DNA from: an uncultured Candidatus Saccharibacteria bacterium
GTDB taxonomy: Bacteria; Patescibacteriota; Minisyncoccia; Phycocordibacterales; UBA9973
DNA length: 64,000 nt
Assembly: GCA_964412965.1 (NCBI GenBank)
Contig: CAYPQU010000003.1
Location: forward strand, 2,788-66,787
Direction of reading: 5' to 3'
Positions 8,387-63,774 of this stretch are shown piece by piece. The notes below the pieces were generated by a model, which worked only from the letters and a program-made list of their open reading frames with translations, was not told where the DNA came from and made no database searches. The position numbers and the translations under genes were made by a program. The number at the start of each line of letters is the position of its first letter. Positions within the stretch are counted from its first letter, which is position 1.

Positions 8387-9658
8387 CTAAGAAATTACTT
8401 CTTTACCAAAATATTTTTGCAAAACAGACGGGATTTTAATACTTCCATCTGCTTGTTGAAAATTCTCTACCAACGAAACAAGTATTCTAGGAGTTGGAAT
8501 GGCTGTACAATTTAAAGAATGGGCATATTTCATCTTGCCTTCTTCGTCTCTGTAACGAATATTCATTCTTCGAGTTTGAAAATCATGGAAATAAGAAGCA
8601 GACGATATTTCTCTGTATTTATTTTCTTTTGGCACCCACAACTCTATATCGTATTTCTTTACTTGCCCCATTCCCAAGTCCGCACCACAATTAGCTACGG
8701 TATGATAAGGGATTCCTAGTGTTTCTATAAATTCTTCAGTGTTGCGGTTAATTTCTTCATGGAATGCTACACTGTCACTGTGAGAAGCCTTGCAAAGTAC
8801 TACTTGTTCCCATTTATAAAATTCGTGTACCCTAATTAATCCCTTCACATCTTTTGAGTGACTTCCTGCTTCTCGGCGATAACAAGGTGAAAATCCTAAA
8901 TATTTTTTAGGTAATTCTTCTGCGTTTAAAATTTCATCTTGGTGCAATCCCATCAATGGCACTTCAGCAGTCCCTGTAAGGAAATCTCCATCTTGAGTTT
9001 TGTACAAATCTTCTTCCCCTTGTGGAATATAACCTGTCCCCATGAAAGTTTCTCGTCGAATTATGACAGGAGGGAGAACTGGGATAAAACCCTTATTAGA
9101 GAAAAATTCCAAAGCATGATTCCAGATAGCCATAGAGAGCTTCACCCCCTCGCCAGTGAGAAAATATCCCCTGAAGCCGTGAACCTTTATTCCTCGGTCA
9201 AAATCTACCATTTTATGAGCCATCATTAGATCGATATGATCTTTTGGTTCGAAATCAAAATTGGTCTTTTCTCCCCAAGTTTTTACTTCTGTGTTATCAG
9301 CATCGGAATCTCCTTCTGGAACAGAAATATCGGGAATGTTGGGAACTTCAAGCATCAATTTTTGCCATTCAATCATAATCTCTCGAAGCTCATCTTCTTT
9401 TTGCTTTAAATCATCTTTAACCAAACGCATTTCTTCGATTAGCTGTTTTCTTTCTACGTCAGTCAAAGTACCCCCCATCGAGACACTAACTTTATTTTGT
9501 TCACCTCTTAATGATTCCACTTGAGACAAAAGCGACAGTCTTTTTTCATCCACCGCTAAAAGCTTTTCAATGTCGACTTCGACATGTTTCTTTTTAGCTC
9601 CTTCTTTAACTATTTCTTTGTTTTCTCGTATAAATTTTATATCTAACATAGTAAGCAT
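8387..9658 (-). CDS. serS: Seryl-tRNA synthetase
   Basis: N-terminal coiled coil and class II core motifs, full length (~423 aa). Confidence 0.95.
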   Translation of the reverse strand: MLTMLDIKFIRENKEIVKEGAKKKHVEVDIEKLLAVDEKRLSLLSQVESLRGEQNKVSVSMGGTLTDVERKQLIEEMRLVKDDLKQKEDELREIMIEWQKLMLEVPNIPDISVPEGDSDADNTEVKTWGEKTNFDFEPKDHIDLMMAHKMVDFDRGIKVHGFRGYFLTGEGVKLSMAIWNHALEFFSNKGFIPVLPPVIIRRETFMGTGYIPQGEEDLYKTQDGDFLTGTAEVPLMGLHQDEILNAEELPKKYLGFSPCYRREAGSHSKDVKGLIRVHEFYKWEQVVLCKASHSDSVAFHEEINRNTEEFIETLGIPYHTVANCGADLGMGQVKKYDIELWVPKENKYREISSASYFHDFQTRRMNIRYRDEEGKMKYAHSLNCTAIPTPRILVSLVENFQQADGSIKIPSVLQKYFGKEVIS

Positions 9659-9789
9659 ATTATAACCCTTAAACGGGGTTTTTACAAAATATTACAATAA
9701 ATGTTTAGGATGTTTTTGAATACGACATTCTTCTTGTGTCCAAAAGTGGTATAATATAAATACACAATATAAACAAACCAAGTTCTCTA

Positions 9790-9899
9790 GTCATCAAAAA
9801 CAATCTTCTTTTAGAGACTAGCGAGTGCGGCGGCACGAGCTCGAGGAATTTTTCAGCAGAAAAATATCCGTGCTCTAAAAGAAGATTATTTTTGATGAC
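9790..9899. repeat. MITE-like element: ~26-bp terminal inverted repeats flanking a GC-rich core that is also found twice in the ileS leader
   Basis: Left TIR gtcatcaaaaacaatcttcttttagag and right TIR ctctaaaagaagattatttttgatgac. Core gcgagtgcggcggcacgagctcgaggaatttttcagcagaaaaatatccgtgc matches 43166-43230 and 43316-43385. Confidence 0.55.
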
Positions 9900-9925
9900 T
9901 TTTATATGTTTAAACATTTTATTTT

Positions 9926-10786
9926 ATGGATATTATCAAATTAAAACCTAGCGAATTTCCTCCTCAATTATTAGAAATTCCACAGCCCCCAAAAAGCTTG
10001 TATCTTAGGGGCAAGTTACCGGATCTTGATTTAAAATACCTCGCAGTGGTGGGTTCTCGTAATTACACTTCTTATGGTAAAGACATTTGTGAAAAATTAA
10101 TAAAAGGACTAAGGGGTTATCCTGTCGTAATTGTCTCGGGTCTAGCTTTAGGTATAGATAGCATAGCTCACAAAACGGCACTTAGTGTTGGATTAAAAAC
10201 TATTGCCTTCCCAGGATCGGGACTAAGCGATAAAGCAATATACCCAAAAACAAATATTTTTCTCGCCAAAGAAATTATTGAAAATGGGGGTTGTTTAATT
10301 TCTGAATTTGAACCAAATTTTATTTCTACCCTGTATTCTTTTCCACAAAGAAACAGGTTAATGGCAGGTATGTGTAGGGCAGTCTTAATAATTGAAGCCG
10401 AGGAAAAATCAGGAACACTCATAACAGCTAGACTAGCGCTTGATTACAACAAAGATGTTTTGGCCGTCCCTGGGTCAGCTTTTTCTTCTAATTCAATTGG
10501 TACAAACTGGCTCATCAAACAAGGTGCCACACCAATAACTTGTAGTGAAGATATACTCGAAGCTCTTGGTTTTACGGTAGAAAAACCAAGGCTTAGCGAC
10601 GAAGAGAAATATGCCGACTGTAGCAAGGAAGAAATAATGGTTATCAACTTATTGCGAGAGCCTAGAGAAAGAGACGACTTAATTCGTGAAATGAAAATGG
10701 ACATTGCCGAAGCCAATGCCCTACTTTCAATCATGGAACTCAAAGAATTAATAAAAGAAGAATTAAGCGAAATCCGAAAAATTTAA
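9926..10786 (+). CDS. dprA: DNA processing protein DprA/Smf
   Basis: LAVVGSRNYTSYG...VVIVSGLALGIDSIAHKTAL Rossmann-like DprA core. Confidence 0.85.
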   Translation: MDIIKLKPSEFPPQLLEIPQPPKSLYLRGKLPDLDLKYLAVVGSRNYTSYGKDICEKLIKGLRGYPVVIVSGLALGIDSIAHKTALSVGLKTIAFPGSGLSDKAIYPKTNIFLAKEIIENGGCLISEFEPNFISTLYSFPQRNRLMAGMCRAVLIIEAEEKSGTLITARLALDYNKDVLAVPGSAFSSNSIGTNWLIKQGATPITCSEDILEALGFTVEKPRLSDEEKYADCSKEEIMVINLLREPRERDDLIREMKMDIAEANALLSIMELKELIKEELSEIRKI

Positions 10787-10865
10787 TAAACAACTCTCGA
10801 GCTTTTATGCACTTGATTTTCTGGTTAATTTGCAAAAAAATCTCCAAGGTGTTACTAATAGTAGC

Positions 10866-13085
10866 ATGACTAAGAAGTTACTTATTGTAGAGTCACCTTC
10901 AAAAGCTAAGACGATAGAAAAATACCTAGACGGAGAATACACAGTTCGAGCTTCTGTTGGACACATCAGAGATTTGCCAAAATCAAACAAAAACGCCATT
11001 AATATAGAAAATGGTTTTGTTCCTAATTATGAAATTTCAAAGGGTAAAGAAAAAGTGGTTTACGAACTAAAAACTCTTGCCGAAAAAGCCGACGAGGTGA
11101 TGCTTGCAACAGACCCTGACCGAGAAGGAGAAGCTATTTCTTGGCACCTAAAAGACATTTTAGATACTGATAAAAAAATTAAAGCTCCAATCAAAAGAGT
11201 AGCCTTTCATGAAATTACAAAAGAAGCTATTATAGAAGCTTTACAAAACCCTCGTGATATTGACTTAAATCTAGTTAAAGCACAGGAAGCAAGACGCGTT
11301 CTCGACAGATTAGTTGGATATGATTTGTCTGGGATAATTTGGAAAAAAGTTAGATATGGTTTGTCCGCGGGAAGAGTTCAATCCCCTGCCCTCCGAATCA
11401 TCATGGAAAGAGAAAGGGAAATTAGAGCTTTTATCCCTGAAAAGTATTGGACAATTGAAGGAATTTTTAATCTAAATAAAAATAAAATTAAACTAACCTG
11501 TACAGAGGAACCTCGAGACGAAAAAATCGTAAAAGAAATCTTATCTCTAGGTCAAAAAGAAAAATGGATTATTACTGACATCAAATCCTCTGAACAAAAG
11601 AGACAGCCTAGACCTCCATTTACCACATCCACTTTGCAACAAACCGCAAGCACTAGACTCGGATTCTCTCCTTCTAGAACAATGCAAATTGCACAAAGAT
11701 TGTACGAAGCTGGTCTTATTACCTACATGCGTACCGACAGTACCAATCTAAGCACACAAGCACAAAATCAAATCATTTCGCTCGTTGAAAAAAAATATGG
11801 AAAAGAATATGCCGAAAAGCATTTCTATAAAGCTAAATCTAAAAATGCCCAGGAAGCTCACGAAGCTATCAGACCTACTCACATTGATAACATGTCAGTC
11901 GGAGCTACCGAAGAACAGAAGAAGCTCTATAGACTTATCTGGGAAAGAGCAGTCTCTTCTCAAATGACAGATGCTAAACTTTTAAAATCAAAAATCGTAG
12001 CCAATATAGAACATGGCCAAATACCTGACTTTACAGCTAATGGATCAAAGATTTTATTCCCCGGATGGCTTGCTTGCGACAGTGACGCAAGCGGTGATGA
12101 TATCATACTTCCTGAAGTAAAAAAGGGGCAGGCAATTGACCTTATTGAAATCAGCGAAAATGAAAAATCTACCGAACCACCAAATAGATACACCGAGGCT
12201 GGACTAGTCAAAGAACTAGAATCTAGAGACATAGGAAGACCTTCGACTTACGCGAGTATCATCAAAACACTAGAAGATAGAGGTTATGTAAGAAAAGAAG
12301 GACGCACTCTTTTCCCTACTGATACCGGAGATGTCGTTTCAAGTTTTCTAGAAAATAATTTCTATAACTATATTAGCGACAATTTTACCGCAGACATGGA
12401 AGACAAGTTAGACGATATCTCCAACGGCAAAAGAGATTACGTGAAAACTTTAAAAGATTTTTATGGACCGTTCTTAAGTGACATCAAAGAGAAAGAGAAA
12501 TTAGCAAAAGCTACTAACATAGAAGACGCACCCGAGAATATTAAATGCCCAAAATGTGGCGGTGACATGACTGTGAAGCTTGCCAGAAACGGCAAATTCT
12601 ATTCATGTAAAAATTATCCTGATTGCAGCGGTGCTCTCACCCTAGACGGCAAAGAACTCGAGGGTCCAAAAGAAACCGGAGAAATGTGTCCAACTTGTGG
12701 AGATAAAAAGGGTAAAAACGGTGGAGGAAAACTAGTTGTCAGAGAAGGTAGGTTTGGTTCGTTTATCTCGTGTTCTCGTTACCCTAAATGTAAATTTATT
12801 AAACAAGATGAAGAAGAATTAAAAAAGAAAATGACTGAAATTACCTGCCCTGTTTGCAATAATGGAAAAATGATGGAGAGACGAGGAAGATTCGGAATTT
12901 TTTATTCATGTAGTAATTATCCTGATTGTAAAAATGCAATTAAAGCAAAACCAACTGGTAATATCTGCCCCTTCTGTGACGCCCTGATGATGAATGGCAC
13001 AAAAACTATTCCCGAAAGATGTAGTAATAACAAGTGTCCAAATCATCGACCAGATAAGCTTGAAAAAGAAAAAAGAAGTTCTTAA
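10866..13085 (+). CDS. topA: DNA topoisomerase I with C-terminal zinc-ribbon repeats
   Basis: MTKKLLIVESPSKAKTIEKYL Toprim start and four CxxC...CxxC zinc ribbons at the C-terminus. The ORF opens at 10830, but 10866 is the likelier start. Confidence 0.95.
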   Translation: MTKKLLIVESPSKAKTIEKYLDGEYTVRASVGHIRDLPKSNKNAINIENGFVPNYEISKGKEKVVYELKTLAEKADEVMLATDPDREGEAISWHLKDILDTDKKIKAPIKRVAFHEITKEAIIEALQNPRDIDLNLVKAQEARRVLDRLVGYDLSGIIWKKVRYGLSAGRVQSPALRIIMEREREIRAFIPEKYWTIEGIFNLNKNKIKLTCTEEPRDEKIVKEILSLGQKEKWIITDIKSSEQKRQPRPPFTTSTLQQTASTRLGFSPSRTMQIAQRLYEAGLITYMRTDSTNLSTQAQNQIISLVEKKYGKEYAEKHFYKAKSKNAQEAHEAIRPTHIDNMSVGATEEQKKLYRLIWERAVSSQMTDAKLLKSKIVANIEHGQIPDFTANGSKILFPGWLACDSDASGDDIILPEVKKGQAIDLIEISENEKSTEPPNRYTEAGLVKELESRDIGRPSTYASIIKTLEDRGYVRKEGRTLFPTDTGDVVSSFLENNFYNYISDNFTADMEDKLDDISNGKRDYVKTLKDFYGPFLSDIKEKEKLAKATNIEDAPENIKCPKCGGDMTVKLARNGKFYSCKNYPDCSGALTLDGKELEGPKETGEMCPTCGDKKGKNGGGKLVVREGRFGSFISCSRYPKCKFIKQDEEELKKKMTEITCPVCNNGKMMERRGRFGIFYSCSNYPDCKNAIKAKPTGNICPFCDALMMNGTKTIPERCSNNKCPNHRPDKLEKEKRSS

Positions 13086-31362: not shown

Positions 31363-32139
31363 TTACCGCACACAACGAACATAAAAATTGTATGCACTCT
31401 TGGAATTGTAGGTTATTACTCCCGTATCAAAGAAAGAACGCCAGGCAGAAGAAGTATCGTCGACATTCTCTGTAGAAGTCCAGTATCTAGATGAGGTAAA
31501 ACCAACAGGAGTGTGTGAAATATTTCCAGATGCTTCATAATAGGCTTTCATAGGAGTTAGAAGCATTCCCACAGAAGGTAATCGTCCACCAGAAATAGTA
31601 CACGCACTCATAGCGTAAGACCAATTCATCGAAACATCACCACTCTCAGATGTAACTCCCAATGATGTCACTCCTTTTTTGTCCCATTCCACCACTCCAT
31701 TTTGATCTACTGACCACGCCTTAAGCATAGTATCATCATAGATAATGGCTGTAGCAGCAAATAAAGAAGCTGCGGACGAGCATTTTACTATTATATTTTG
31801 ATCAATTAGTTGTTGTGCAATTTTGCCCAAACTATTATCAATCCCAGCACAAGTAGTATTATACACGGAAGGATTTGATCCTGAATAACTTCCTAAACTT
31901 ATGAAATTAATTTCAGCCTGATTGTATAGTTGTTTTAATGTTGACTTGATTAAGGCAATCTTGCTCTTTTCTCTTGCAGAGTTTAGTGATGTGATGACAA
32001 CAGAGGAGAGTATTCCGATGATTGCAATTACTACTAGTAGTTCAATGAGGGTGAACCCCGACACCCAGTTTTCTCTATCTTTAAAACTAAGTGCGGAGGT
32101 GAAATCTTTATTGTTTGATTTTAAGAAAAGTTTTTTCAC
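31363..32139 (-). CDS. Type IV pilin-like protein (prepilin N-terminus) with a C-terminal DUF1566-like domain ending YVRCVR
   Basis: GFTLIELLVVIAIIGIL prepilin methylation motif and helix. The C-terminus (YWTST...AW...YVRCVR) is characteristic of DUF1566. Confidence 0.7.
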   Translation of the reverse strand: MKKLFLKSNNKDFTSALSFKDRENWVSGFTLIELLVVIAIIGILSSVVITSLNSAREKSKIALIKSTLKQLYNQAEINFISLGSYSGSNPSVYNTTCAGIDNSLGKIAQQLIDQNIIVKCSSAASLFAATAIIYDDTMLKAWSVDQNGVVEWDKKGVTSLGVTSESGDVSMNWSYAMSACTISGGRLPSVGMLLTPMKAYYEASGNISHTPVGFTSSRYWTSTENVDDTSSAWRSFFDTGVITYNSKSAYNFYVRCVR

Positions 32140-32263
32140 GTTTAAATTATAACACGTTTCAGGCGCGCGGATAAGTGTTCGAGGTCTTGCCTAGTATGAG
32201 GTCGGACCTCGTACTAGGCAAGACCTCGACTGTTATCCACAGATTTTTAGTTTTTATGGTTTG

Positions 32264-39563: not shown

Positions 39564-42500
39564 TTATTTTACCACCTTAATTACAAAAGTTAAATCTGCA
39601 ATTTTTACTTCTGTCCCTTCGTTGTCTTTATATTCTATCGCCTTAGCAGATACTAATTTTTGAATATTTTCCTTAAACTTTTCTATCAAACCCTGCCCTT
39701 CTTCGTTAGTTTTAATCAAGAGCGTAATTAGATCGTTTGGATTTAAATCGTTTTTCTTTCTTATGTCTTGAATAGCTCTAACCAACTCTCTGTAATTTCC
39801 TTCTTTCTTTAAATCTTCGGTTATGTTTATATCCAAGATAACTTCGAGCTCTTGCCCTTCTTCAAATTTAACATTTTTAATGTTCAACTCATCTTTTAGA
39901 ATAGAGACATACTCTTCTTTTAAGTTATATTTTTTAACAGTTATTTCTTGCAGAGGTTGTCTTACGGGGATTGAGGCCTTTTGTCTATTTTGTAATCCCA
40001 AAGTTACGATCTCTCGTAGCTCCTTCATGTCTTCAATAACCTTATCATCGTAAGCGAATCCTTCTGGCCACTCTCCGAGGTGGACGCTCATGGAATCATT
40101 TTCTAATTTTAATTTTTGCCAAATATCTTCAGCGGAAAAAGGAGCAAATGGCGCCATTAATTTTGCCATTGTTTTAAATACAAAATAAATAGTTTGTTTG
40201 GCTTCTATGTCTCCCTCTTTTATTCTGTCTCTTGAGCGACGTAAATACCAAGTAGATAAATCGTCAATAAAGCCTCTCATCGCTCTCGCAGGTTCTAGTA
40301 ATTTATAATTTTCTAAGTTTTCTGTTGATACTTTTATCAATTCTCCCAGTCTAGATAATATCCAAATATCTAAGACGTTTTTACTGTTTGGTTTATCACT
40401 TGTTACTATTTTTGTATCTCTATACAACTCATAAAAAGCAAAAACATTGTAAAACAAATTGAAGAACTTGTTATTCAATTCTGCAACTGTTTTTTCATCA
40501 AAGTTTTTTGGTTCCCCAGGTTGGTTTATTGAATACATCCAGAGTCTTAAAGTATCAACTCCATATTTATCTGACATTTCCCAAGGATCAACTCCGTTGC
40601 CGAGAGATTTAGACATCTTCTTTCCATTGGCGTCGAGAACCAACCCGAGACAAATCACATTTTTAAATGCTTTTCCTTTACCCATGATTGTTCCTACTGC
40701 ATGTAACGTATAGAACCACCCTCTTGTTTGGTCTATCCCCTCACTGATGAAGTCTGCAGGATAAGCAATATCTGTAGTACTAAAAGGATAATGGCTTTGA
40801 GCAAAAGGCATTGACCCGGAATCCAGCCAGACGTCCATAACTTCTTTTGCTCTTTCTAATTTTCCACCACAATCGCAAACAACATCCACTTCATCAATAT
40901 ATGGTCTGTGCAAGTCTAGTTCATAATTTTCATCATGAGGAATTGGTTTAAAATCAAGCTCTCTAATTTCTGAATTAACAAGACAAGAGAAATCTTTTAG
41001 CATGGAGAGCGTTTGCCTTGCTCCATATCCGTTTATTCCCGCAAGCATCAACCAAGCTGGTCCCCCATGTGTTACGATTAAAATATTTTTACCTTGATAT
41101 TTATTTTCTAGGCCGTACAAGAAGTCCATTGATCTTTTTCTAAGCTCATTCCAAGTCTCACTTCCTTCTTCTGTTTTATAGAAGTTCTCTTCTGTGTTTG
41201 GATAATCATTGTGATAATCTTGCCAAGTTTTACCTTCATATTTAGAGACCTTGTATTCAGTTAGACTTTCATCAATTAAAATATTTTTTTCGTCATATCC
41301 CAATATTTTCGCTACTTCTATGGCAGTTTCTCTTGCTCTTGTTACAGGTGAAGAAATAATTAAATCTATTTTTTCATTTTTTAATTTTTCTGCATTATTT
41401 CTTGTCTCATTGACACCCTTTTCCGTTAGATGACTAACTCGATATTCATCAGAAGTATTTATTTTTCCGTCTAAATTATTTTCAGATTCACCATGACGCA
41501 TTACAAAATATTTATTACCAGAAGTTTTTGCTTTGGATTTTATATCTTCAACTCCACCTAGGACTTCTATTTTGCCACAAGTATCACATTTCCAGACAGG
41601 AAGCGGAGTCCCCCAATATCTTTCTCGAGAGATTGCCCAATCTTTAATATCTTTTAGCCACTCTCCAAAACGCCCTTCTTTAATATATGAAGGCTCCCAA
41701 TTTATATTTTCATTTTCTTTAACCATCTTGTCTTTAAGCGCAGACATTCTGATATACCAAGAATCTCGCGCATAATATATAAGAGCTGTTTTACATCTCC
41801 AGCAATGAGGGTAAGTGTGTTCGTACTTTTCTTTCTTATGCAAAAGTCCTTTTCCTGCCAAATCTTTTATTATATCGACAGCCACATCTTCGTCTCGAAC
41901 AAATCTATCTTTTAGAAAATCAGTTCCTTCCAGGAATTTTCCATCAAGCCCAACAAGATGACATTTAGGTAATCCTACTTTATTGCCAAGCTCAAAGTCG
42001 TCTTGACCATACATGGGAGCAATATGCACCACCCCTGTTCCGTCTTCTGTAGTCACAAAATCCGCTCCATATATTTTATAAGCATTTTCCATTTTTTCAG
42101 CTTCTTCTTTCGATGCTATTGCTTTTGTATACGGATATAGTGGTTCATATGAAAGACCAATTAAATCTTTCCCTTTTAATTCTTCTACAATATTATATTC
42201 TCCTTCCAAAACAGAAAGTCGTGATTTCGCAAGAATTAAAAATTCTCCATTTTGTTCTACGCGAACATAATCAATATCTTCTCCAACTGCCAAGGCGACA
42301 TTTGAAGGAAGAGTCCAAGGAGTTGTCGTCCAAACTAATATGTGAATTTCTTCGCCTGTATGCTTATGCGAATGGTCTGGCTCCGGCTCTTGTCCCCCTC
42401 GTCCGAGGACCTGAGCAGAAGCATCAGGCGAAGAAACCTGGAAACTCGAAGCTCCTGTTAATTTAAATTTCACGTACACGGTTATATCTTTCACATCCTG

Positions 42501-43091
42501 ATATCCTTGAGCCAGTTCATGCGAAGAGAGCCCAGTTCCACATCTAGGACACCAGGGTACTATTTTATAGTCTTTATAAAGTAAATTTTGCTTATGTGCT
42601 TCTTTGATGACATTCCATACTGATTCGATGTAAGTATTATGATACGTAACATACGGATTTTCCTGATCAACCCAAAAGCCTATCCTGTCTGTGAATTTAT
42701 GCCATAAATCTGTATAGTTCCAAACATTGTGCTTGCATTCTTTATTAAATTTATCTATTCCATATTCTTCAATATCTTTTTTTGATTGCAAGTTTAACTT
42801 TTTCTCTACTTCAATTTCAACAGGAAGACCATGAGTATCCCAACCACCCTTTCTCGTGACGTGATAACCATTCATTGTCTTATAACGCAAAACCGCATCC
42901 TTAAAAGCTCTCGCCGCTAGATGGTGAATTCCAGGCTTGCCATTCGCCGTCGGAGGGCCTTCGAAGAAAACATACTCTCCCTTCGGAGAATTCTTCTCTA
43001 AACTTTTTTCAAAAATTTTATTGTCCTGCCAAAACTCTAAAACTTTTTCTTCTCTCAGTGCATTATTTGATTTTGTTTTTTCTTCGTTCAT
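39564..43091 (-). CDS. ileS: Isoleucyl-tRNA synthetase carrying an internal ~180-aa histidine-phosphatase-like insertion
   Basis: HIGH region PPTANGKPGIHHLA, WTTTPWTLPSN, KMSKSLGNG. The insert carries FVMRHGESENN...SSPVTRARETA...THGG between split Cys pairs CDTCG and CDCGG. Confidence 0.95.
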   Translation of the reverse strand: MNEEKTKSNNALREEKVLEFWQDNKIFEKSLEKNSPKGEYVFFEGPPTANGKPGIHHLAARAFKDAVLRYKTMNGYHVTRKGGWDTHGLPVEIEVEKKLNLQSKKDIEEYGIDKFNKECKHNVWNYTDLWHKFTDRIGFWVDQENPYVTYHNTYIESVWNVIKEAHKQNLLYKDYKIVPWCPRCGTGLSSHELAQGYQDVKDITVYVKFKLTGASSFQVSSPDASAQVLGRGGQEPEPDHSHKHTGEEIHILVWTTTPWTLPSNVALAVGEDIDYVRVEQNGEFLILAKSRLSVLEGEYNIVEELKGKDLIGLSYEPLYPYTKAIASKEEAEKMENAYKIYGADFVTTEDGTGVVHIAPMYGQDDFELGNKVGLPKCHLVGLDGKFLEGTDFLKDRFVRDEDVAVDIIKDLAGKGLLHKKEKYEHTYPHCWRCKTALIYYARDSWYIRMSALKDKMVKENENINWEPSYIKEGRFGEWLKDIKDWAISRERYWGTPLPVWKCDTCGKIEVLGGVEDIKSKAKTSGNKYFVMRHGESENNLDGKINTSDEYRVSHLTEKGVNETRNNAEKLKNEKIDLIISSPVTRARETAIEVAKILGYDEKNILIDESLTEYKVSKYEGKTWQDYHNDYPNTEENFYKTEEGSETWNELRKRSMDFLYGLENKYQGKNILIVTHGGPAWLMLAGINGYGARQTLSMLKDFSCLVNSEIRELDFKPIPHDENYELDLHRPYIDEVDVVCDCGGKLERAKEVMDVWLDSGSMPFAQSHYPFSTTDIAYPADFISEGIDQTRGWFYTLHAVGTIMGKGKAFKNVICLGLVLDANGKKMSKSLGNGVDPWEMSDKYGVDTLRLWMYSINQPGEPKNFDEKTVAELNNKFFNLFYNVFAFYELYRDTKIVTSDKPNSKNVLDIWILSRLGELIKVSTENLENYKLLEPARAMRGFIDDLSTWYLRRSRDRIKEGDIEAKQTIYFVFKTMAKLMAPFAPFSAEDIWQKLKLENDSMSVHLGEWPEGFAYDDKVIEDMKELREIVTLGLQNRQKASIPVRQPLQEITVKKYNLKEEYVSILKDELNIKNVKFEEGQELEVILDINITEDLKKEGNYRELVRAIQDIRKKNDLNPNDLITLLIKTNEEGQGLIEKFKENIQKLVSAKAIEYKDNEGTEVKIADLTFVIKVVK

Positions 43092-43399
43092 ATGTTTTCT
43101 ATTTAACTAATAATTTTAATAATTATCCAAGAAAATAAAAATAAGTCTTTGAGAAATACCTTGCGCAGAGCGACGGCTCGAGCAGAGAAATTTTTCAACA
43201 GAAAAATATTCGTGCATTTCGAGAAGAGCTTATTTTTGCTTTCTCTTAAGAAAAAAACTCGTTATTTAATAATTATCCCAAGAAAGCAAGAATAAGTCTT
43301 TGAGAAATGACTAGGGAGCGCGACGGCGCGAGCTCGAGGAATTTTTCAGCAGAAAAATATCCGTGCATTTCGAGAAGAGCTTATTTTTGCTTTCCCTTA

Positions 43400-43600
43400 A
43401 CAAAAAACTCGTCCTTGTATAACAATCGACTGATTGCTACATAAGGACGAGTTTCTCTCCTCGTGGTACCACCTTAATTCCCCTAAAAGGGCTTATTTTA
43501 CAGCTTTTACGGGCTTACCCGCTAAGTTCTAATCTCCTTTTGTGGATTTCTTCTTAGTGCTCCGAGGTGATGTCCTCTTCAACGCTTCTATATATATATT
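43400..43600 (-). promoter_or_regulatory. T-box riboswitch leader (Ile specifier) upstream of ileS
   Basis: In the sense strand: a stem I region containing ggacATCacc (ATC = Ile codon), the T-box sequence aattaaggtggtaccacgagg, and the terminator ctcgtcctt...aaggacgag followed by tttttt. Confidence 0.7.
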
Positions 43601-43745
43601 ATATCATATTTACTGTTAAATTAAAAGCGTCTGACCAGTTGACTATATAAACGACAAGCCCTCTCTGAAACGCTCCTCCTTGCGTCGGAGTCGTTTCAAA
43701 GAGGATGTAATAATGAAATAATGAAAATTCTAGGCGGGCAAACCA

Positions 43746-44534
43746 CTACCTAACACAGCGAACATAGAACCCGCTAGTCTGACTGTGGTTGTACAAGTTA
43801 CCATTGTTCATGCTCTGGTAGTAAGCGAGCGTAGTAGGCGAAGACGGAACAGGGATAGAAGACCAGTAAACGCTCGCTACGAAACCAAGAGGAGTGTAAG
43901 GTGTAGCGGTTGCTCCAGCACCTGCATAAGATGCCCAATATAGGGTTCTCAATTGTTCAATAGAAGGAAGGCGTCCGCCGTTTGTAGTACAAGCAGTTTT
44001 TGCTGTAGACCAGTTCATAGTATTGCTACCCAAAACATCATCACCTGGGAGTGAAGCTCCGGCTGATGTTACACTCCTTGTATCCCACTTAACTACTCCG
44101 TTTTCATCTACTGACCATGCTTTGAGTTCACCAGTGTCATAGATGAGGGCTGTGGCTCCGAAACGAAAGTTGTTGTCACCTAAATAAACACCACTGGTAC
44201 CTAGATAGCTAAAGCATTTAACTATAATTCCTTGGTCAATAAGAGGTTGAGCTATTTTAGCTAGATTACCTCCTGGGCCTGTACAGGTTAAATCTGAATA
44301 TGATGTATTAGAGTTTGCAAAACTACCATATTCTGCTTGATTGATGGCAGCTTGGTTGTATAGTTGTTTTAAGGAGGATTTAATAGAAGCAATCTTGCTC
44401 TTTTCTCTTGCAGAGTTTAGTGAAGTGATGACAACTGATGAGAGTATTCCGATGATTGCAATTACTACCAATAGTTCTATCAATGTAAACCCTTTGGTAA
44501 ATTTTGATGATTTAAAAATAGATTTTTTACTCAT
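43746..44534 (-). CDS. Type IV pilin-like protein with a C-terminal DUF1566-like domain (paralog of 31363-32139)
   Basis: Identical prepilin N-terminus (GFTLIELLVVIAIIGILSSVVITSLNSAREKSKIA). The C-terminus ends GFYVRCVR, and its 3' region is GC-rich. Confidence 0.7.
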   Translation of the reverse strand: MSKKSIFKSSKFTKGFTLIELLVVIAIIGILSSVVITSLNSAREKSKIASIKSSLKQLYNQAAINQAEYGSFANSNTSYSDLTCTGPGGNLAKIAQPLIDQGIIVKCFSYLGTSGVYLGDNNFRFGATALIYDTGELKAWSVDENGVVKWDTRSVTSAGASLPGDDVLGSNTMNWSTAKTACTTNGGRLPSIEQLRTLYWASYAGAGATATPYTPLGFVASVYWSSIPVPSSPTTLAYYQSMNNGNLYNHSQTSGFYVRCVR

Positions 44535-44810
44535 GTTTTTATTATATCATCATATTGTTTAACGACAACCCTTAATTATCAAATCCCCCCTTTTATACAA
44601 ACCAAACCTATATAATTAATTCCATCCATCACCTTACGCGATCGCTTGCAGTGATGTAAAATATCAAGATCTCAATTTCATAAGTTAAATCCATGTAAAA
44701 AACAACAGCATTTCTATCCATTACTTTACGCGATAGCGTAAAGTAATGGATAGAAATATTATTATTCTGCTATATCCCAACTTCCCTGGGTCTGGCCCAA
44801 GGGAACTGGA

Positions 44811-44936
44811 CTAGGTGAACAGACACAAGGTAACAAATCTGAGTGAATAGGCCTATGTGAACGGACCTAGGTGAACAGACTTAGGTGAACAAACTTAAGA
44901 GAACAAACTCAGGTGGGCAGACCTAAGGGAACGAAC
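44811..44936. repeat. Nine tandem degenerate 14-bp repeats (consensus cTAGGTGAACAGAC)
   Basis: Read directly: ctaggtgaacagac, ctatgtgaacggac, ctaggtgaacagac, ttaggtgaacaaac, ttaagagaacaaac, tcaggtgggcagac, ctaagggaacgaac and others. Confidence 0.7.
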
Positions 44937-45010
44937 ACAAGAGGATCTTATTTTTTCTAATAACACTACACTTTTGCACAAAGTGCAAAAGTGTAGTGTT
45001 TTCTTTCTTT

Positions 45011-56084: not shown

Positions 56085-57089
56085 CTACCTTGTAAAACTG
56101 CGGGAGGAACGAAAGCCCAAAGGGTCGTACTGAAACGAAAAACCACAGACATTGACAACGCGCTTGCCACTGCTGGGATCCAAAGTCGAAAAGACAAGAC
56201 GGGAACCGCTTTTGGTAGAGAGCCATATCCAGCCATCTTTATCTAAGTGTTTGCCTGTTTCTTCAAAGTATTTCTTGGATAGTATGAGATATTCTTCAAG
56301 GGATAGAGTGGTATCTAGAGGGACATCTTGACCTTTGATGTTTAGTGTTTGAGCTAGTTCTGGGTGGTCTTTCAAGTTTTGAGTGTTGTGAGTGAGGATG
56401 AGACGGATTTTGTCTTGATTTTGACTTTGGGCTTTCTTGAAGCTTCCACCTTCTTTAAAGTTATCACTTTCCCAATACTTTGCGTCCTTCATCTTCTTAG
56501 CTAGGTCTGGTAAGTCGGTGGTAGGAGGGATTAAGATGATTTCATTGAATCCGTGAGCTTCTATCTCTTTCTCGATTTCATCTAGATTATTGTTCCATAT
56601 CTCTTTGATTTGTTCTTCAAAGTCATCTGCAACTTCTAGATTGTGTTTCTTGTAGAAAGATATGTATTCGTTTAGCTTTTGTTCAATGTTTAGAGTGATT
56701 TGTTCGGTTTTTTCTACCTTACCGTCCTTGTTGATGAAGGTGTAGATGGAGGAGATTTTTTCGGTGTGAGAAGGTAGAGGTTCACCACTATCTAGTCTTT
56801 CTTTCATCTTCTCTACTCTATCCATCATACTGTTTAGCTTTTCTTGCATAGTTACCTTTCTTTCTTCTCCTTTTCCTTCTTTTTCATCTTCTTGATCGTT
56901 AAATAATCCTTGTGATATGGATTCTTTATATTCTTCTATGGCTTCTTGTATTGGGAGTTTAAGTGATTGTATTTTACCTTCTAATATACTCCTCAATTCT
57001 TCTTGAGATTTCTCTGGTTTTGGAACACTTTTTTCTTGGGTTTGAGTGTTCTCTTTTTTGCTTTTGAATAGGTTGGTGAGAGATTCCAT
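56085..57089 (-). CDS. Hypervariable-C-terminus paralog 1 (~330-aa family; candidate DGR-type variable protein with a CLec/FGE-like C-terminal end)
   Basis: N-terminal 40 aa nearly identical to the paralogs at 57112 and 60240. The C-terminus ...WLSTKSGSRLVFS...LGFRSSRSFTR is GC-rich and divergent. Confidence 0.7.
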   Translation of the reverse strand: MESLTNLFKSKKENTQTQEKSVPKPEKSQEELRSILEGKIQSLKLPIQEAIEEYKESISQGLFNDQEDEKEGKGEERKVTMQEKLNSMMDRVEKMKERLDSGEPLPSHTEKISSIYTFINKDGKVEKTEQITLNIEQKLNEYISFYKKHNLEVADDFEEQIKEIWNNNLDEIEKEIEAHGFNEIILIPPTTDLPDLAKKMKDAKYWESDNFKEGGSFKKAQSQNQDKIRLILTHNTQNLKDHPELAQTLNIKGQDVPLDTTLSLEEYLILSKKYFEETGKHLDKDGWIWLSTKSGSRLVFSTLDPSSGKRVVNVCGFSFQYDPLGFRSSRSFTR

Positions 57090-57111: not shown

Positions 57112-58104
57112 CTACTTCATATAACTACAGGAGGAACGGAACCCCAAACCGCCACCCTGAGCCGAAAAGCCACGGGCACCGACAAGGCGCTTGCGGTCGC
57201 CGAGATCCCAATACGAATAGACGAGACGAGCACCAGATTTGGTTGCAAGCCAAGTATAGTTATCTTCATCTAGGTGGTGACCTGTTTCTTCAAAATATTT
57301 CTTGGAAAGGATAAGGTATTCTTCGAGAGAAAGAGTCTTGTCTAGGGGAACGTCTTGTCCTTTGGTATTTAGAGTTTTAGCTAGTTCGGGGTGATCTTTC
57401 AGATTTTGGACTTTGTGAGTGAGAATTATGCGAGTCTTGTCTTGATTTTGACTTTGAGCTTTCTTAAAACTTCCACCCTGTTTGAAATTACCACTTTCCC
57501 AGTATTTTGTTTCTTTCATTTTCTCTGCTAAATCTGATAGATCTGTGGTAGGGGGAATTAGCAGGATTTCATTGAATCCGTGTCCCTCTATCTGTTTCAG
57601 TATGTCGTCTGTGTTTTCTTCCCAAATATCTCTGATATCTTCTTCAAAATTATCGGGTATTTCTACACCATGCGAATCGTAAAAAGAAATGTATTCGTTT
57701 AACTTTTGTTCGATATTTAATGTGATTTGTTCGACTTTCCTTGTGTCGGGGAAAGTGTAGGAGGATTCGATTGAATCGGTAAGTGAGGGTAGTATTTCAT
57801 TGCTGTCTAGCTTGGCTTTCATCTTCTCTACTCTATCTAGCATACTATTGATCTTTTCTTGCATAACTGTCTTTCTTTCTTCACCTTTTCCTTCTTCTTC
57901 ATCTTCTTGATCGTTAAATAATCCTTGTGATATGGATTCTTTGTATTCTTCTATGGCTTCTTGTATTGGGAGTTTAAATGATTGTATTTTACCTTCTAAT
58001 ATACTCCTCAATTCTTCTTGAGATTTCTCTGGTTTTGGAACACTTTTTTCTTGGGTTTGAGTGTTCTCTTTTTTGCTTTTGAATAGGTTGGTGAGGGATT
58101 CCAT
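57112..58104 (-). CDS. Hypervariable-C-terminus paralog 2
   Basis: Same family. Its 3' ~170 nt are identical to the 3' end of the AAA-fusion gene (61255-61420). Confidence 0.7.
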   Translation of the reverse strand: MESLTNLFKSKKENTQTQEKSVPKPEKSQEELRSILEGKIQSFKLPIQEAIEEYKESISQGLFNDQEDEEEGKGEERKTVMQEKINSMLDRVEKMKAKLDSNEILPSLTDSIESSYTFPDTRKVEQITLNIEQKLNEYISFYDSHGVEIPDNFEEDIRDIWEENTDDILKQIEGHGFNEILLIPPTTDLSDLAEKMKETKYWESGNFKQGGSFKKAQSQNQDKTRIILTHKVQNLKDHPELAKTLNTKGQDVPLDKTLSLEEYLILSKKYFEETGHHLDEDNYTWLATKSGARLVYSYWDLGDRKRLVGARGFSAQGGGLGFRSSCSYMK

Positions 58105-60239: not shown

Positions 60240-61232
60240 CTACTTCATATAACTGCGGGAGGAACGAAAGCCCAAACGGCCGCTCCGATACGAAAAAGCA
60301 TCGGCATCGACACAGCGCCGGTCACGGCCGGGATCCCAATCCGAACAGACAAGACGGGAACCGCTTTCTGTCGAGAGCCAAGTCGCACCGTATTCATCTA
60401 AGTGCTTGCCTGTTTCTTCAAAGTATTTCTTGCATAGTATGAGGTATTCTTCAAGAGACAGAGTGATGTCTAAGGGGACATCTTCTCCTTTGATGTTTAA
60501 GGTTTGAGCTATTTCGGGATGGTCTTTCAAGTTTTGAGTGTTGTGAGTGAGGATGAGACGTACTTTGTCTTGATTTTGACTTTGAGCTTTTTCGAAACTT
60601 CCACCTTCTTTGAAATTATCACCTTCCCAATACTTTGCCTCCTTCATCTTCTCTGCTAAATCTGATAGATCTGTGGTTGGTGGAATTAGCAGGATTTCAT
60701 TGAATCCATGTTCTGTCATCTGCTTTTTAATGTCATTGATATTTGCTTCCCAGATATCTTTGATGTCTTCTTCGAAATTATCGGGTATTTCTACACCATG
60801 TGAATCATAGAAAGAAATGTATTCGTTTAACTTTTGTTCGATATTTAATGTGATTTGTTCGACTTTCCTTGTGTCGGGGAAAGTGTAGGAGGATTCGATT
60901 GATTCGGTAAGTGAGGGTAGTATTTCATTGCTGTCTAGCTTGGTTTTCATTTTTTCTACTTTGTCTAACATGCTATTTAACTTCTTTTGCATAGACATCT
61001 TTCTTTCTTCTCCTTTTCCTTCTTCTTCGTCTTCTTGATCATCAAACTTACCATCTTCTAATGATGTTTGATATTCTTTGATTAATTCTTCGATTGGAGT
61101 TTTAAGTGATTGTATTTTACCTTCTAATATACCCCTCAGTTCTTCTTGAGATTTCTCTGGTTTTGGAACACTTTTTTCTTGAGTGTTCGTGTTCTCTTTT
61201 TTGCTTTTGAATAGGTTGGTGAGAGATTCCAT
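60240..61232 (-). CDS. Hypervariable-C-terminus paralog 3
   Basis: Same family. C-terminus ...WLSTESGSRLVCSDWDPGRDRRCVDADAFSYRSGRLGFRSSRSYMK. Confidence 0.7.
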   Translation of the reverse strand: MESLTNLFKSKKENTNTQEKSVPKPEKSQEELRGILEGKIQSLKTPIEELIKEYQTSLEDGKFDDQEDEEEGKGEERKMSMQKKLNSMLDKVEKMKTKLDSNEILPSLTESIESSYTFPDTRKVEQITLNIEQKLNEYISFYDSHGVEIPDNFEEDIKDIWEANINDIKKQMTEHGFNEILLIPPTTDLSDLAEKMKEAKYWEGDNFKEGGSFEKAQSQNQDKVRLILTHNTQNLKDHPEIAQTLNIKGEDVPLDITLSLEEYLILCKKYFEETGKHLDEYGATWLSTESGSRLVCSDWDPGRDRRCVDADAFSYRSGRLGFRSSRSYMK

Positions 61233-61254: not shown

Positions 61255-63774
61255 CTACTTCATATAACTACAGGAGGAACGGAACCCCAAACCGCCACCC
61301 TGAGCCGAAAAGCCACGGGCACCGACAAGGCGCTTGCGGTCGCCGAGATCCCAATACGAATAGACGAGACGAGCACCAGATTTGGTTGCAAGCCAAGTAT
61401 AGTTATCTTCATCTAGGTGGTGACCTGTTTCTTCAAAATATTTCTTGGAAAGGATAAGGTATTCTTCGAGGGATAGTGTTTTATCTAAGGGTACATCTTG
61501 TCCTTTGATATTTAGAGTTTTGGTAAGTTCGGGGTGATCTTTTAGATTTTGGACTTTGTGGGTGAGTACAATACGGACTTTGTCTTGGTTTTGACTTTGA
61601 GCTTTTTCGAAACTTCCACCTTCTTCGAAATTATCACCTTCCCAATACTTTGCCTCCTTCATCTTCTCTTTCATCTTCTCTGCTAAATCAGGCAAATCTG
61701 TGGTTGGTGGAATTAGCAGGATTTCATTGAATCCATATTCCTCTATTTGCTTCTCCAGGTCATCAATATTTGCTTCCCAGATATCTTTGATATCTTCTTC
61801 GAAATTATCGGGTATTTCTACACCATGCGAATCGTAAAAAGAAATGTATTCGTTTAACTTTTGTTCGATATTTAATGTGATTTGTTCGGTTTTCTCAATT
61901 TGGCCGTCTTGGTTGGTAAAAGTATATGTGGTTTTGATTTCTTCTGTTTGTGATTTTTTATCCTTCCCATATATTTTTTCAAATCTCCTACCTAGTCCAT
62001 TCAAAAATTCATCTTTATTTGAATCTATCCCTTCTTTAAGCAAGACTTCTGCTTTTAGTTTTAATAACTCTTCTCTTTTATTAAATGGATCTAGCTCTGC
62101 TACTTCTTTTAGGGTTAAGTGCTTTATATCCCCTGATTTATCCCTCAACTCTTCGGTGGCATTTTCTCCTCGAAGAGATTTAATAGCATTAAATCTGAAA
62201 ATATCTTCCGGTAGGTTTAATTCTTCAGCAGAAAGAGTTGTAAGAAAACCTTTTGACGCTAGAATCTTCGCAGCCAAAATCCTATCTTCTTTTGAATATT
62301 CGTCAAAAGTAAGGGCAGTTTTTAATCTTTGGTCTAAAAATTCAGAGAAAGATACTGTTTCTTTCTTTGTTTGCTTTTCTATGGTCCAAGAAGAAAAGAT
62401 GGCTTCCACTGTTCCTTGTGTCATTACAAATTTTTTAAGAGAATGATATTTTCCACTAGCATCCATAGCCCCTACATTCTGTGCTAGATTTTTGTCTGTC
62501 TCGTTTGTGTATGATTCTTGAATTTCAGACATAGCCTTACACAAATTTGGTAGTGTTGTATTTAAATCATAAAAAGACATATCTATGGATCCATCTTTAT
62601 TCATAAGTCTGGCAAGCATTATGTCATATGCTTCATCTGAAGGATTATATTCTATTTTAACATTGTTTTGTTCAAATTCACGAGTTATCTCTGGAGGTAA
62701 TTCTTGCCTTTCTGGATTTTTTTCTGATTTTAAGTTTGCTGTAAAAATCATTTGAAAACCTGGTTTTATGTCTACTATTCCATTGCCTACAATATTCACT
62801 TTGTCTCCTACTTTGGCATTAAATACCCCTTTAATGAAAACCATCTGTTCTTTTGGTAATGCAGTAAATTCATCAAAGATAACGACTTTACCCTCAGTCA
62901 TTGCTTTAGCAAGAGGCCCATATATCTCCACTGTTTCAATGGCTCCACTCTCTCCGCTTGGTCTTAACCCTGTTTTTCCCCAAACATTTGCTTCTCTTGT
63001 CTGCGGGTTACAAAAAACCATCTCGGGCGTTTTACCAGTAAAGTGTTCAGAGGCAAATCTAGCCAAAGAGGTCTTTCCTGTTCCCGTTGGTCCGTGCAAT
63101 AACATTGGTTTGCTTGTAAGCATTCTGTCTCCGATGGCATCCAAATCTTTTTCCACTTCTGGGGTGATGCAGATGTGCCCAGGCTGGCTTAAATTTTTCT
63201 TGTATTCTACCAACTTCGCTTGTTGTAATGTATTTTGATCAACACCTTCTAAAAAGTTTTCTTTTTCAATAATTTCATTTTTTACTGAGTCTAATATTTT
63301 TTCATTTCTTTCTTTTGTTTCTTTAGAACATTTGGGATCTAATATTTCAAAAATCTTATGAATCCTATAATCTTTGAGTTTAGAAATTTCTTCCAGTGAT
63401 TCTTGAACTTTGCTTATTTGAGGATTTTCTTTTCTTATAGAAGAATAATCAATTTTAGAAAGATTATTTAAAAGTTCTTTTTCGTACTCTTTTTTTTGAT
63501 TTTTTAAAATTTTCTTTGATTCAGAAAAACCACCATTTTCCTCTATACTAAAAGAGGATGCTTTGTCTTCTAAGTCAACCAAATCATCTTTATAATGCTT
63601 TTCGTAAATTTTTTTCTTAAAAGCGTCGAGATCTGACCCCCCGCCATTTTTCGTAATTCCAAATTCGTTTTTAATAGTTTTCTTTAATTCTAATCGATCC
63701 TCAAAAACCTTATGAAAATTAAGATTTTTTTCACCCTCGCCTTCTTTTGGGTTAAAATTAGGTTTGTTTTCCAT
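61255..63774 (-). CDS. MoxR/AAA_5-type AAA+ ATPase fused at its C-terminus to a fourth copy of the hypervariable-paralog domain
   Basis: Walker A LLHGPTGTGKTS and Walker B VVIFDEF at about residues 225-300. Residues ~520-839 align with the 330-aa paralogs, including the variable end. Confidence 0.75.
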   Translation of the reverse strand: MENKPNFNPKEGEGEKNLNFHKVFEDRLELKKTIKNEFGITKNGGGSDLDAFKKKIYEKHYKDDLVDLEDKASSFSIEENGGFSESKKILKNQKKEYEKELLNNLSKIDYSSIRKENPQISKVQESLEEISKLKDYRIHKIFEILDPKCSKETKERNEKILDSVKNEIIEKENFLEGVDQNTLQQAKLVEYKKNLSQPGHICITPEVEKDLDAIGDRMLTSKPMLLHGPTGTGKTSLARFASEHFTGKTPEMVFCNPQTREANVWGKTGLRPSGESGAIETVEIYGPLAKAMTEGKVVIFDEFTALPKEQMVFIKGVFNAKVGDKVNIVGNGIVDIKPGFQMIFTANLKSEKNPERQELPPEITREFEQNNVKIEYNPSDEAYDIMLARLMNKDGSIDMSFYDLNTTLPNLCKAMSEIQESYTNETDKNLAQNVGAMDASGKYHSLKKFVMTQGTVEAIFSSWTIEKQTKKETVSFSEFLDQRLKTALTFDEYSKEDRILAAKILASKGFLTTLSAEELNLPEDIFRFNAIKSLRGENATEELRDKSGDIKHLTLKEVAELDPFNKREELLKLKAEVLLKEGIDSNKDEFLNGLGRRFEKIYGKDKKSQTEEIKTTYTFTNQDGQIEKTEQITLNIEQKLNEYISFYDSHGVEIPDNFEEDIKDIWEANIDDLEKQIEEYGFNEILLIPPTTDLPDLAEKMKEKMKEAKYWEGDNFEEGGSFEKAQSQNQDKVRIVLTHKVQNLKDHPELTKTLNIKGQDVPLDKTLSLEEYLILSKKYFEETGHHLDEDNYTWLATKSGARLVYSYWDLGDRKRLVGARGFSAQGGGLGFRSSCSYMK

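Follow-up and report, generated by a model that had tools for sequence, protein, structure and literature searches.

We consider it highly probable that pil43, one of two paralogous pilin-like genes in the 64-kb stretch of DNA analyzed here (the window), joins a pilin to a DUF1566/CLec2-class target of a diversity-generating retroelement (DGR), either remote from its cassette or orphaned, and that the second gene, pil31, is a plain paralog. A DGR alters the binding tip of a protein through error-prone copying of a template repeat (TR) by a reverse transcriptase (RT). Judging by its sequence, the 3′ end of pil43 is a genuine DGR variable region (VR). The initial annotation had proposed the two genes together as a second possible DGR target class; this was borne out for pil43, which has TR homology in related genomes and cis elements next to its VR, but not for pil31, which matches no TR and is static.

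The Two Pilin-Like Genes

Both ORFs listed in the initial annotation are present, and both are on the minus strand. The pil43 ORF (43746–44534, 262 aa) encodes the putative variable protein, a prepilin-like sequence with a C-terminal DUF1566/Lcl_C domain, and the pil31 ORF (31363–32139, 258 aa, GTG start) encodes a prepilin-DUF1566-like paralog, a probable non-target. A promoter-like site, TTGTCG-16-TG-TATAAT, abuts the pil43 start (44541–44568, minus strand); it scored 10/12 in a consensus scan and is a consensus match only.

The N-terminus and core of the two genes had been described as essentially identical. This is true of the first 50 residues of the mature protein (residues 15–64 of pil43), of which 47 coincide (94%), but not of the leader peptide (14% identity) or of the remainder (31–49%). 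Identity is 44% in residues 65–134, 49% in residues 135–212, and 31% in residues 213–256, while the terminal six residues form the common YVRCVR end that had been correctly noted and are 100% identical. Over their whole length, the proteins are 55% identical by BLASTP, and the alignment has 19 gap positions. A repeat search over the whole window yielded a single nucleotide repeat joining the genes, 31906–32058 versus 44340–44492, of 153 nt and 85% identity. In pil43, it corresponds to the region of the mature N-terminus (FTLIELLVVIAIIGILS and the following α1 helix; 44340–44492, minus strand). The best 60-nt stretch (gene nt 121–180) is 95% identical, and elsewhere identity is ∼60%.

Past the N-terminal helix, the genes differ at 25–52% of positions per 60-nt block, and also by indels. 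Divergence was thought to be confined to the last ∼50 residues; the C-terminal ∼45 residues are indeed the most divergent block of the mature protein, but they exceed the middle part only moderately, and differences and indels are found throughout the post-helix gene. This is ordinary paralog divergence over all positions. Because of this spread, with 25–52% differences in every block after the N-terminal one, the A-site spectrum test that had been suggested for this pair is uninformative, and the comparison of the paralogs carries no information on DGR activity.

The intergenic region between argS and pil43 (44535–45010) contains five overlapping tandem repeats with a 14-nt period (44794–44919) and two perfect 18–20-bp hairpins (44710–44757 and 44962–45000). 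Between tatD and pil31, there is a 49-nt palindromic element (32198–32246), 88% identical to positions 2036–2084 of a related locus, L020, where it directly follows a DGR RT gene; it may be a shared terminator or repeat element.

Domain Composition and Predicted Structure

A pilin-like N-terminus, as initially annotated, was confirmed in both proteins, the N_methyl domain scoring above the cutoff in pil43 (32.2 bits) and in pil31 (26.9 bits). The DUF1566 assignment was secured for pil43, whose Lcl_C (PF07603) score of 38.4 bits exceeds the Pfam gathering cutoff of 34.9 bits, but pil31, at 31.3 bits, falls slightly under it and is therefore a homologue solely via alignment to family members. 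The predicted prepilin cleavage sites, ...FTKG in pil43 and ...WVSG in pil31, are each directly followed by FTLIELLVVIAIIGILS, and both proteins show the features of a class III signal peptide, with a short basic leader, G at −1, F at +1, and E at +5 ahead of a hydrophobic α1 helix. In a search against PDB, the N-terminal 60 residues of the family profile matched PilA/geopilin (E ∼1e-11), and its C-terminal part gave weak matches to C-type lectin domains.

In the AlphaFold (AF2) model of pil43 (pLDDT 86.5, pTM 0.80), a 52-residue N-terminal helix, residues 18–69, precedes a C-terminal domain, for which Foldseek ranked highest the C-terminal domain of Legionella Lcl (8q4e) and the tip domain of Bdellovibrio Bd2740 (8oks), followed by animal CTLDs and FGE. 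We read pil43 as a type IV pilin-like subunit with a class III signal peptide (G|FTLIE), an α1 helix, and a predicted DUF1566/Lcl_C lectin-fold head that ends in the VR. Pfam Lcl_C covers residues 148–262, and the VR at the 3′ end of the gene lies within this C-type-lectin fold.

DGR Cassettes in Related CPR Genomes

The pil43 family is a large set of prepilin-DUF1566 proteins, whose few named members are labelled as Candidatus Moranbacteria MAGs. One CPR MAG, GCA_964482735.1, has at least nine paralogs, as found by searching the genome contigs with the C-terminal domain. Canonical DGR cassettes were present in four genomes, and cassette-less copies of the family in others. At locus L018, the cassette consists of the target gene (9593–10372), bAvd (10472–10912; PF22296, E 3.4e-11), a 166-nt TR (10972–11137), and the RT gene (11174–12247; RVT_1, E 1.5e-19), in this order, and the RT carries the LPIGNLTSQ (IGNLTSQ) and YVDD motifs. 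Homologues of this RT number in the thousands and are largely from records labelled as Patescibacteria. One other locus that had been flagged as RT-like by a motif filter (L010:10519–12630) proved to be gyrB, a false positive. Cassettes with the L018-like gene order also occur at L020, L022, L023, L025, and L026. No TR or RT was found within the examined flanks of L001 and L002.

The translation of the L018 TR is LGFVANNYWSSTPVPSSPTTLAYNQNMNNGNLNNNSQTNGNYVRCVR, and the TR of the cassette encodes ...ANNYWSSTPVPSSPTTLAYNQNMNNGNLNNNSQTNGNYVRCVR. The L018 TR differs from its own VR at adenines only, with mismatches at 17 of the 44 adenines and at none of the 122 other bases. The TR/VR pairs of L023 and L026 behave similarly (16 and 13 A-site mismatches, respectively, and no non-A mismatches in either), and in the L025 cassette, the VR carries an indel close to its 3′ terminus. 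At least two classes of VR scaffolds, PVPSSP and VPVPSQPLVY, exist in the related genomes.

The Variable Region of pil43

The VR of pil43 (43726–43891, minus strand) takes in the final 47 codons, the stop codon, and the next 20 nt, and aligns without gaps over 166 nt to the TRs, all of which are heterologous, that is, come from related genomes. Against the best-matching TR (L023:2322–2487), pil43 has mismatches at 11 of 42 A sites and at 4 of 124 other sites (Fisher p 5.5e-5). Against the TR of L018 (10972–11137), the counts are 13/44 and 7/122 (p 1.3e-4), and the same values were obtained for the TR of L026 (13/44 and 7/122, p 1.3e-4). When the TR alleles are pooled, all positions of the pil43 VR but one either match a natural TR allele or face a TR adenine. 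Of the four non-A mismatches to the L023 TR, three (positions 23, 37, and 41) are C-to-T changes, which could reflect drift following a loss of homing instead of allelic differences among TRs. The number of altered adenines is 13 of 44 in pil43 compared to 17–22 of 44 in other VRs, and more AAY codons are unmutated in pil43.

Variation within the family follows the same pattern. When 38 members are aligned, an invariant scaffold, YWSS.PVPSSP..LAY.Q.M..G.L....Q..G.YVRCVR, stands out in the C-terminal ∼45 residues, with hypervariable positions in between. In the 30 homologues with the scaffold, 12 positions templated by AAY (Asn) codons are occupied by 6–13 residue types each, almost all from the NNY set, and codons without A are mostly invariant or nearly so. 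Among pil43, L002, and L006, TR adenines account for 22 of 27 variable columns. In a comparison with P0003, encoded at L002 and 82% identical to pil43, differences in the variable core are all in positions 1 and 2 of AAY-type codons, and the scaffold is identical save two changes in adjacent codons (ATC/ACC and CCT/CCC). A diverged homologue, L013, is syntenic with pil43, the pilin gene being followed by the same T-box-ileS leader. Identity between the two is 66–82% over the gene body but reaches 87% in the VR, where TR-A sites account for 16 of the 23 differences. Conservation of the scaffold beyond that of the gene body is the outcome expected of repeated overwriting from a conserved template.

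The region 43752–43900 had been singled out as GC-rich, and it is: its GC content is 48.3% compared to the window mean of 34.8%, which places it at the 98.7th percentile of 150-nt windows. The A content drops to 13% in gene nt 631–720. The GC-rich, A-poor 3′ end arises because the template avoids adenine outside the AAY codons; in the L018 TR, the sequence outside the 12 AAY codons contains 20 adenines in 130 nt.

Elements Downstream of the Variable Region

The homology between VRs and TRs continues for 20 nt beyond the stop codon, up to a common CGCCTAGAATT motif. In pil43, an IMH-like 3′ boundary element, TGGTTTGCCCGCCTAGAATT, immediately follows the stop codon (43726–43745, minus strand). 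The CGCCTAGAATT core is conserved at this post-stop position in the VRs of L018, L002, L006, L013, L020, and L001/L009 and also at the 3′ end of every TR; neither pil31 nor the non-VR paralogs are followed by it. Approximately 20 nt downstream of the IMH-like element, there is a long conserved hairpin (43660–43704, minus strand), for which folding predicts a 17-bp stem. Across six homologous sites, 18 pairs are predicted, of which seven show compensatory double changes and none is broken.

From the position and conservation of these elements, we infer an IMH function for CGCCTAGAATT and a role of the hairpin as a DGR target-recognition hairpin or cruciform, a terminator of the pilin gene, or both; it could also be a plain transcription terminator.

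Genomic Context of pil43: a Remote Target or an Orphan

We found no TR, RT, or Avd in the window. A repeat search revealed no second copy of the 3′ end of pil31 or pil43 in the window, and an A-tolerant ungapped scan of both its strands yielded no TR for either gene, 43726–43891 being the only TR/VR-like sequence of the window. Six-frame ORFs of at least 100 aa in the window contained no YxDD or IGNxxSQ motifs of RT, and tblastn of the window with the L018 RT and Avd produced only noise. Pfam scans of ∼45 ORFs of the window identified housekeeping genes only and no DGR component; genes named in this way are eno, dnaX, serS, dprA, topA, relA, parB, clpB, tatD, metG, recO, ileS, argS, dut, thyA, pyrG, and ftsEX. 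No pilus assembly genes were seen among the scanned ORFs of the window. Outside it, a 30-mer scan of the genome contigs for the VR scaffold gave zero matches, and a 24-mer scan of the metagenome contigs gave one true match (L006) and four chance matches in high-GC contigs.

pil43 is surrounded by housekeeping genes and lies between argS and the T-box-ileS leader. As no DGR cassette lies in the 43 kb to one side of it or in the 20 kb to the other, pil43 is a remote (trans) target or an orphan.

Several further features of the window were observed. ileS (39564–43091, minus strand, 1175 aa) has a His_Phos_1 domain inserted at residues 529–694 (Pfam E 3.4e-31), which splits the class I catalytic domain. 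Upstream of ileS, a T-box leader (43440–43591, minus strand) matches Rfam RF00230 (E 3.6e-13), although its score falls short of the gathering threshold. Next comes a 151-nt tandem duplication at 43105–43407 (the whole region being 43105–43591), and a related 72-nt copy is found upstream of serS (9843–9914). In addition, there are four copies of a ∼330-aa module on the minus strand (56085–57089, 57112–58104, 60240–61232, and 61255–62247), adjoining VWA and AAA_5 (midasin-like) proteins. The last ∼55 residues of the copies are hypervariable and GC-rich, and the last 170 nt are identical in two copies. The A-tolerant scan found no TR for these modules in the window. CPR DGR targets with Midasin-type AAA domains have been mentioned (PMC5758913).

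If pil43 follows the established DGR mechanism, a TR would be transcribed and then reverse-transcribed with random misincorporation opposite adenines, and the cDNA would replace the VR, directed by the IMH-like motif and the downstream hairpin. As a result, the 12 AAY codons on the lectin surface would be randomised, while the A-poor scaffold would stay constant. pil43 would either be served in trans by a cassette elsewhere in the genome or be an orphan left after the loss of its cassette.

That pil43 is an active remote target is possible but, in our estimate, less likely than not: in these CPR bacteria, a single DGR cassette may act in trans on type IV pilin genes dispersed among housekeeping genes, and the diversified pili would then carry a hypervariable lectin head. 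The intact cis elements favor pil43 as a functional target, as do the cassette-less copies at L002 and L013 with their different A-site variants. Rather unlikely, in our estimate, is that pil43 is a relic, an orphan VR whose cassette has been lost and whose sequence is frozen, accumulating ordinary mutations only. This would agree with the lack of a cassette in the 64 kb, and decay is possible given the modest count of mutated adenines and the three C-to-T non-A mismatches, which are peculiar to pil43 among the VRs. In the related MAG, L014 and L008 resemble decayed VRs, with 10–16 non-A mismatches and a degenerate IMH, and the syntenic locus L017 of the same MAG has a non-VR paralog. However, pil43 retains an intact IMH-like motif and 17-bp hairpin, and two of the three C-to-T positions are found in a natural TR allele, that of L022, and the third in L020. 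Moreover, remote DGR targets have been documented (PMC8144416), and P0003 (L002) and L013, which share the VR and have no cassette directly downstream, nevertheless carry different A-site variants.

pil31 as a Static Paralog

pil31 showed none of the VR features described above. Its match to every TR was at the noise level, with 33 non-A mismatches in 140 nt, and no TR match was found in the window or at any locus compared. It has no IMH-like motif after the stop codon and no conserved hairpin, and its 3′ end is less A-depleted than that of pil43. Between the mature protein and two relatives of ∼95% identity, there are only five substitutions; two of them lie in the C-terminal ∼60 residues, and the final 29 residues are identical. 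The syntenic ortholog, L019, retains the gene order pilin-rpsF-ssb-rpsR, and nt 121–777 of pil31 are 98–100% identical to it in most 60-nt blocks, including 100% identity in nt 721–777 and one mismatch in nt 661–720. Non-VR paralogs are also present in GCA_964482735.1 (L012 and L015–L017). All this indicates that pil31 is a diverged family member that evolves as an ordinary gene and is not a DGR target.

It is accordingly very improbable that both paralogs are DGR targets, pil31 being served by a second, different TR. Such an arrangement could be imagined given the same domain layout and the YVRCVR end of pil31 and given that the related genomes have more than one VR scaffold class, PVPSSP and VPVPSQPLVY; yet the mature pil31 protein is nearly invariant in relatives, its terminal blocks are almost identical to those of L019, and the IMH-like motif, the conserved hairpin, the TR match, and the strong A-depletion are all missing from it.

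Mosaic Structure of the Pilin Family

The pilin family (pil31 and pil43, L018, L002, and L006) is mosaic. DNA encoding the N-terminal helix is 95–98% identical, and the paralogs are otherwise 50–70% identical, with two parts, the leader peptide and the stretch immediately preceding the VR, occurring in the manner of exchangeable cassettes. Recombination or gene conversion among the paralogs is suggested by this pattern. The syntenic site upstream of the T-box-ileS leader is occupied by a non-VR pilin at L017 (GCA_964482735.1, CAYZYV010000001.1) and by a VR-bearing pilin both in the MAG CAZBHU01 (L013) and in the window (43300–44534); therefore, this single locus has seen an exchange of VR-bearing and non-VR 3′ ends.

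Mosaicism of this kind, with pil43 and P0039 sharing blocks of 98% to 49% nucleotide identity and alternative cassettes such as YWASYAGAGATATPYTP and SHAWYSKANTDGD shuffled among members, might be taken to mean that positive selection and recombination among pilin paralogs produced the C-terminal variability with no retroelement at all, but this is hardly credible, as ordinary selection cannot explain variation limited to positions 1 and 2 of 12 codons, a non-coding Asn-codon template copy beside an RT, the lack of any non-A mismatch in three TR/VR pairs, or a VR scaffold conserved beyond the gene body.

Comparison With Known Systems

The target class to which pil43 belongs is already known; what is notable is the fusion of a type IV pilin to a lectin domain and the situation of a remote or orphan target. 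DGR targets with DUF1566, DUF823, or Fib_succ_major domains constitute the VR class CLec2, category ‘d’, with Legionella pneumophila LdtA as the exemplar (Wu et al., 2018; PMC5758913). Similar to these, pil43 has its VR at the extreme end of the gene, in a C-terminal DUF1566-type C-type-lectin fold, and its family shares the diversification of AAY codons, the Avd-type accessory gene, and a surface-exposed ligand-binding target. Unlike them, pil43 starts with a type IV prepilin signal and an α1 helix rather than a lipoprotein or Tat signal, its host is a CPR bacterium, and no cassette adjoins it.

CPR DGRs are abundant (PMC8144416) and form a CPR/Patescibacteria clade (Paul et al., 2017, as cited in PMC5758913), clade 2 of Roux et al. 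(2021; PMC8144416). The cassettes described here resemble this clade in the compact order of target, avd, TR, and RT in small housekeeping-rich genomes and in having RT homologues that are largely labelled as Patescibacteria. For clade 2, it is stated that targets as a rule have no transmembrane or other conserved domain that can be recognised (PMC8144416), whereas in the pil43 family the prepilin N-terminus is clear and Pfam detects an Lcl_C domain.

The DGR of Bordetella phage BPP-1 (Mtd) similarly has a 3′ boundary element common to TR and VR, adenine-specific mutagenesis, and, beyond the VR, a conserved hairpin; on the other hand, there is no sequence similarity, and the hairpin at pil43 is longer (∼17 bp). 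Bacteroides DGRs diversify type V pilus adhesins (bioRxiv 10.1101/2024.11.15.621889) and thus also act on a pilus-associated adhesive component, but they belong to another phylum and to pili assembled by sortase-like strand exchange, while pil43 itself is a type IV pilin-like subunit. Type IV pilins such as PilA, geopilin, and T2SS GspG are comparable at the N-terminus, where 60 residues match the PilA/geopilin profiles, but canonical pilins have a small alpha-beta head and no lectin domain. Conversely, the C-terminal domain of Legionella Lcl (8q4e), like the tip domain of Bd2740, superposes on that of pil43, but Lcl is a collagen-like adhesin and not a pilin. The initial annotation calls fusions of DUF1566 domains to pilin-like N-termini recurrent DGR targets in CPR-like genomes; the sole mention of pilins in this context that we found is one line stating that pilin-type (G-type-pilin) domains are ‘scarcely represented’ among DGR targets (PMC11661182).

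Implications

A remote VR can be recognised by its A-poor scaffold, IMH-like motif, and hairpin even with no RT on the contig, and DGR surveys anchored on RT overlook remote VRs on RT-less contigs. In CPR bacteria, a central part in attachment and DNA uptake is generally attributed to type IV pili. The pilin-lectin DGR target family ties the abundance of DGRs in CPR to type IV pili and yields a testable hypothesis of how an episymbiont could vary its adhesion specificity. If diversification in trans is real, pilus subunits, or a tip subunit, with a hypervariable lectin head would make the pilus a programmable attachment organelle, and such pili would serve an episymbiont that needs to find and hold host cells.
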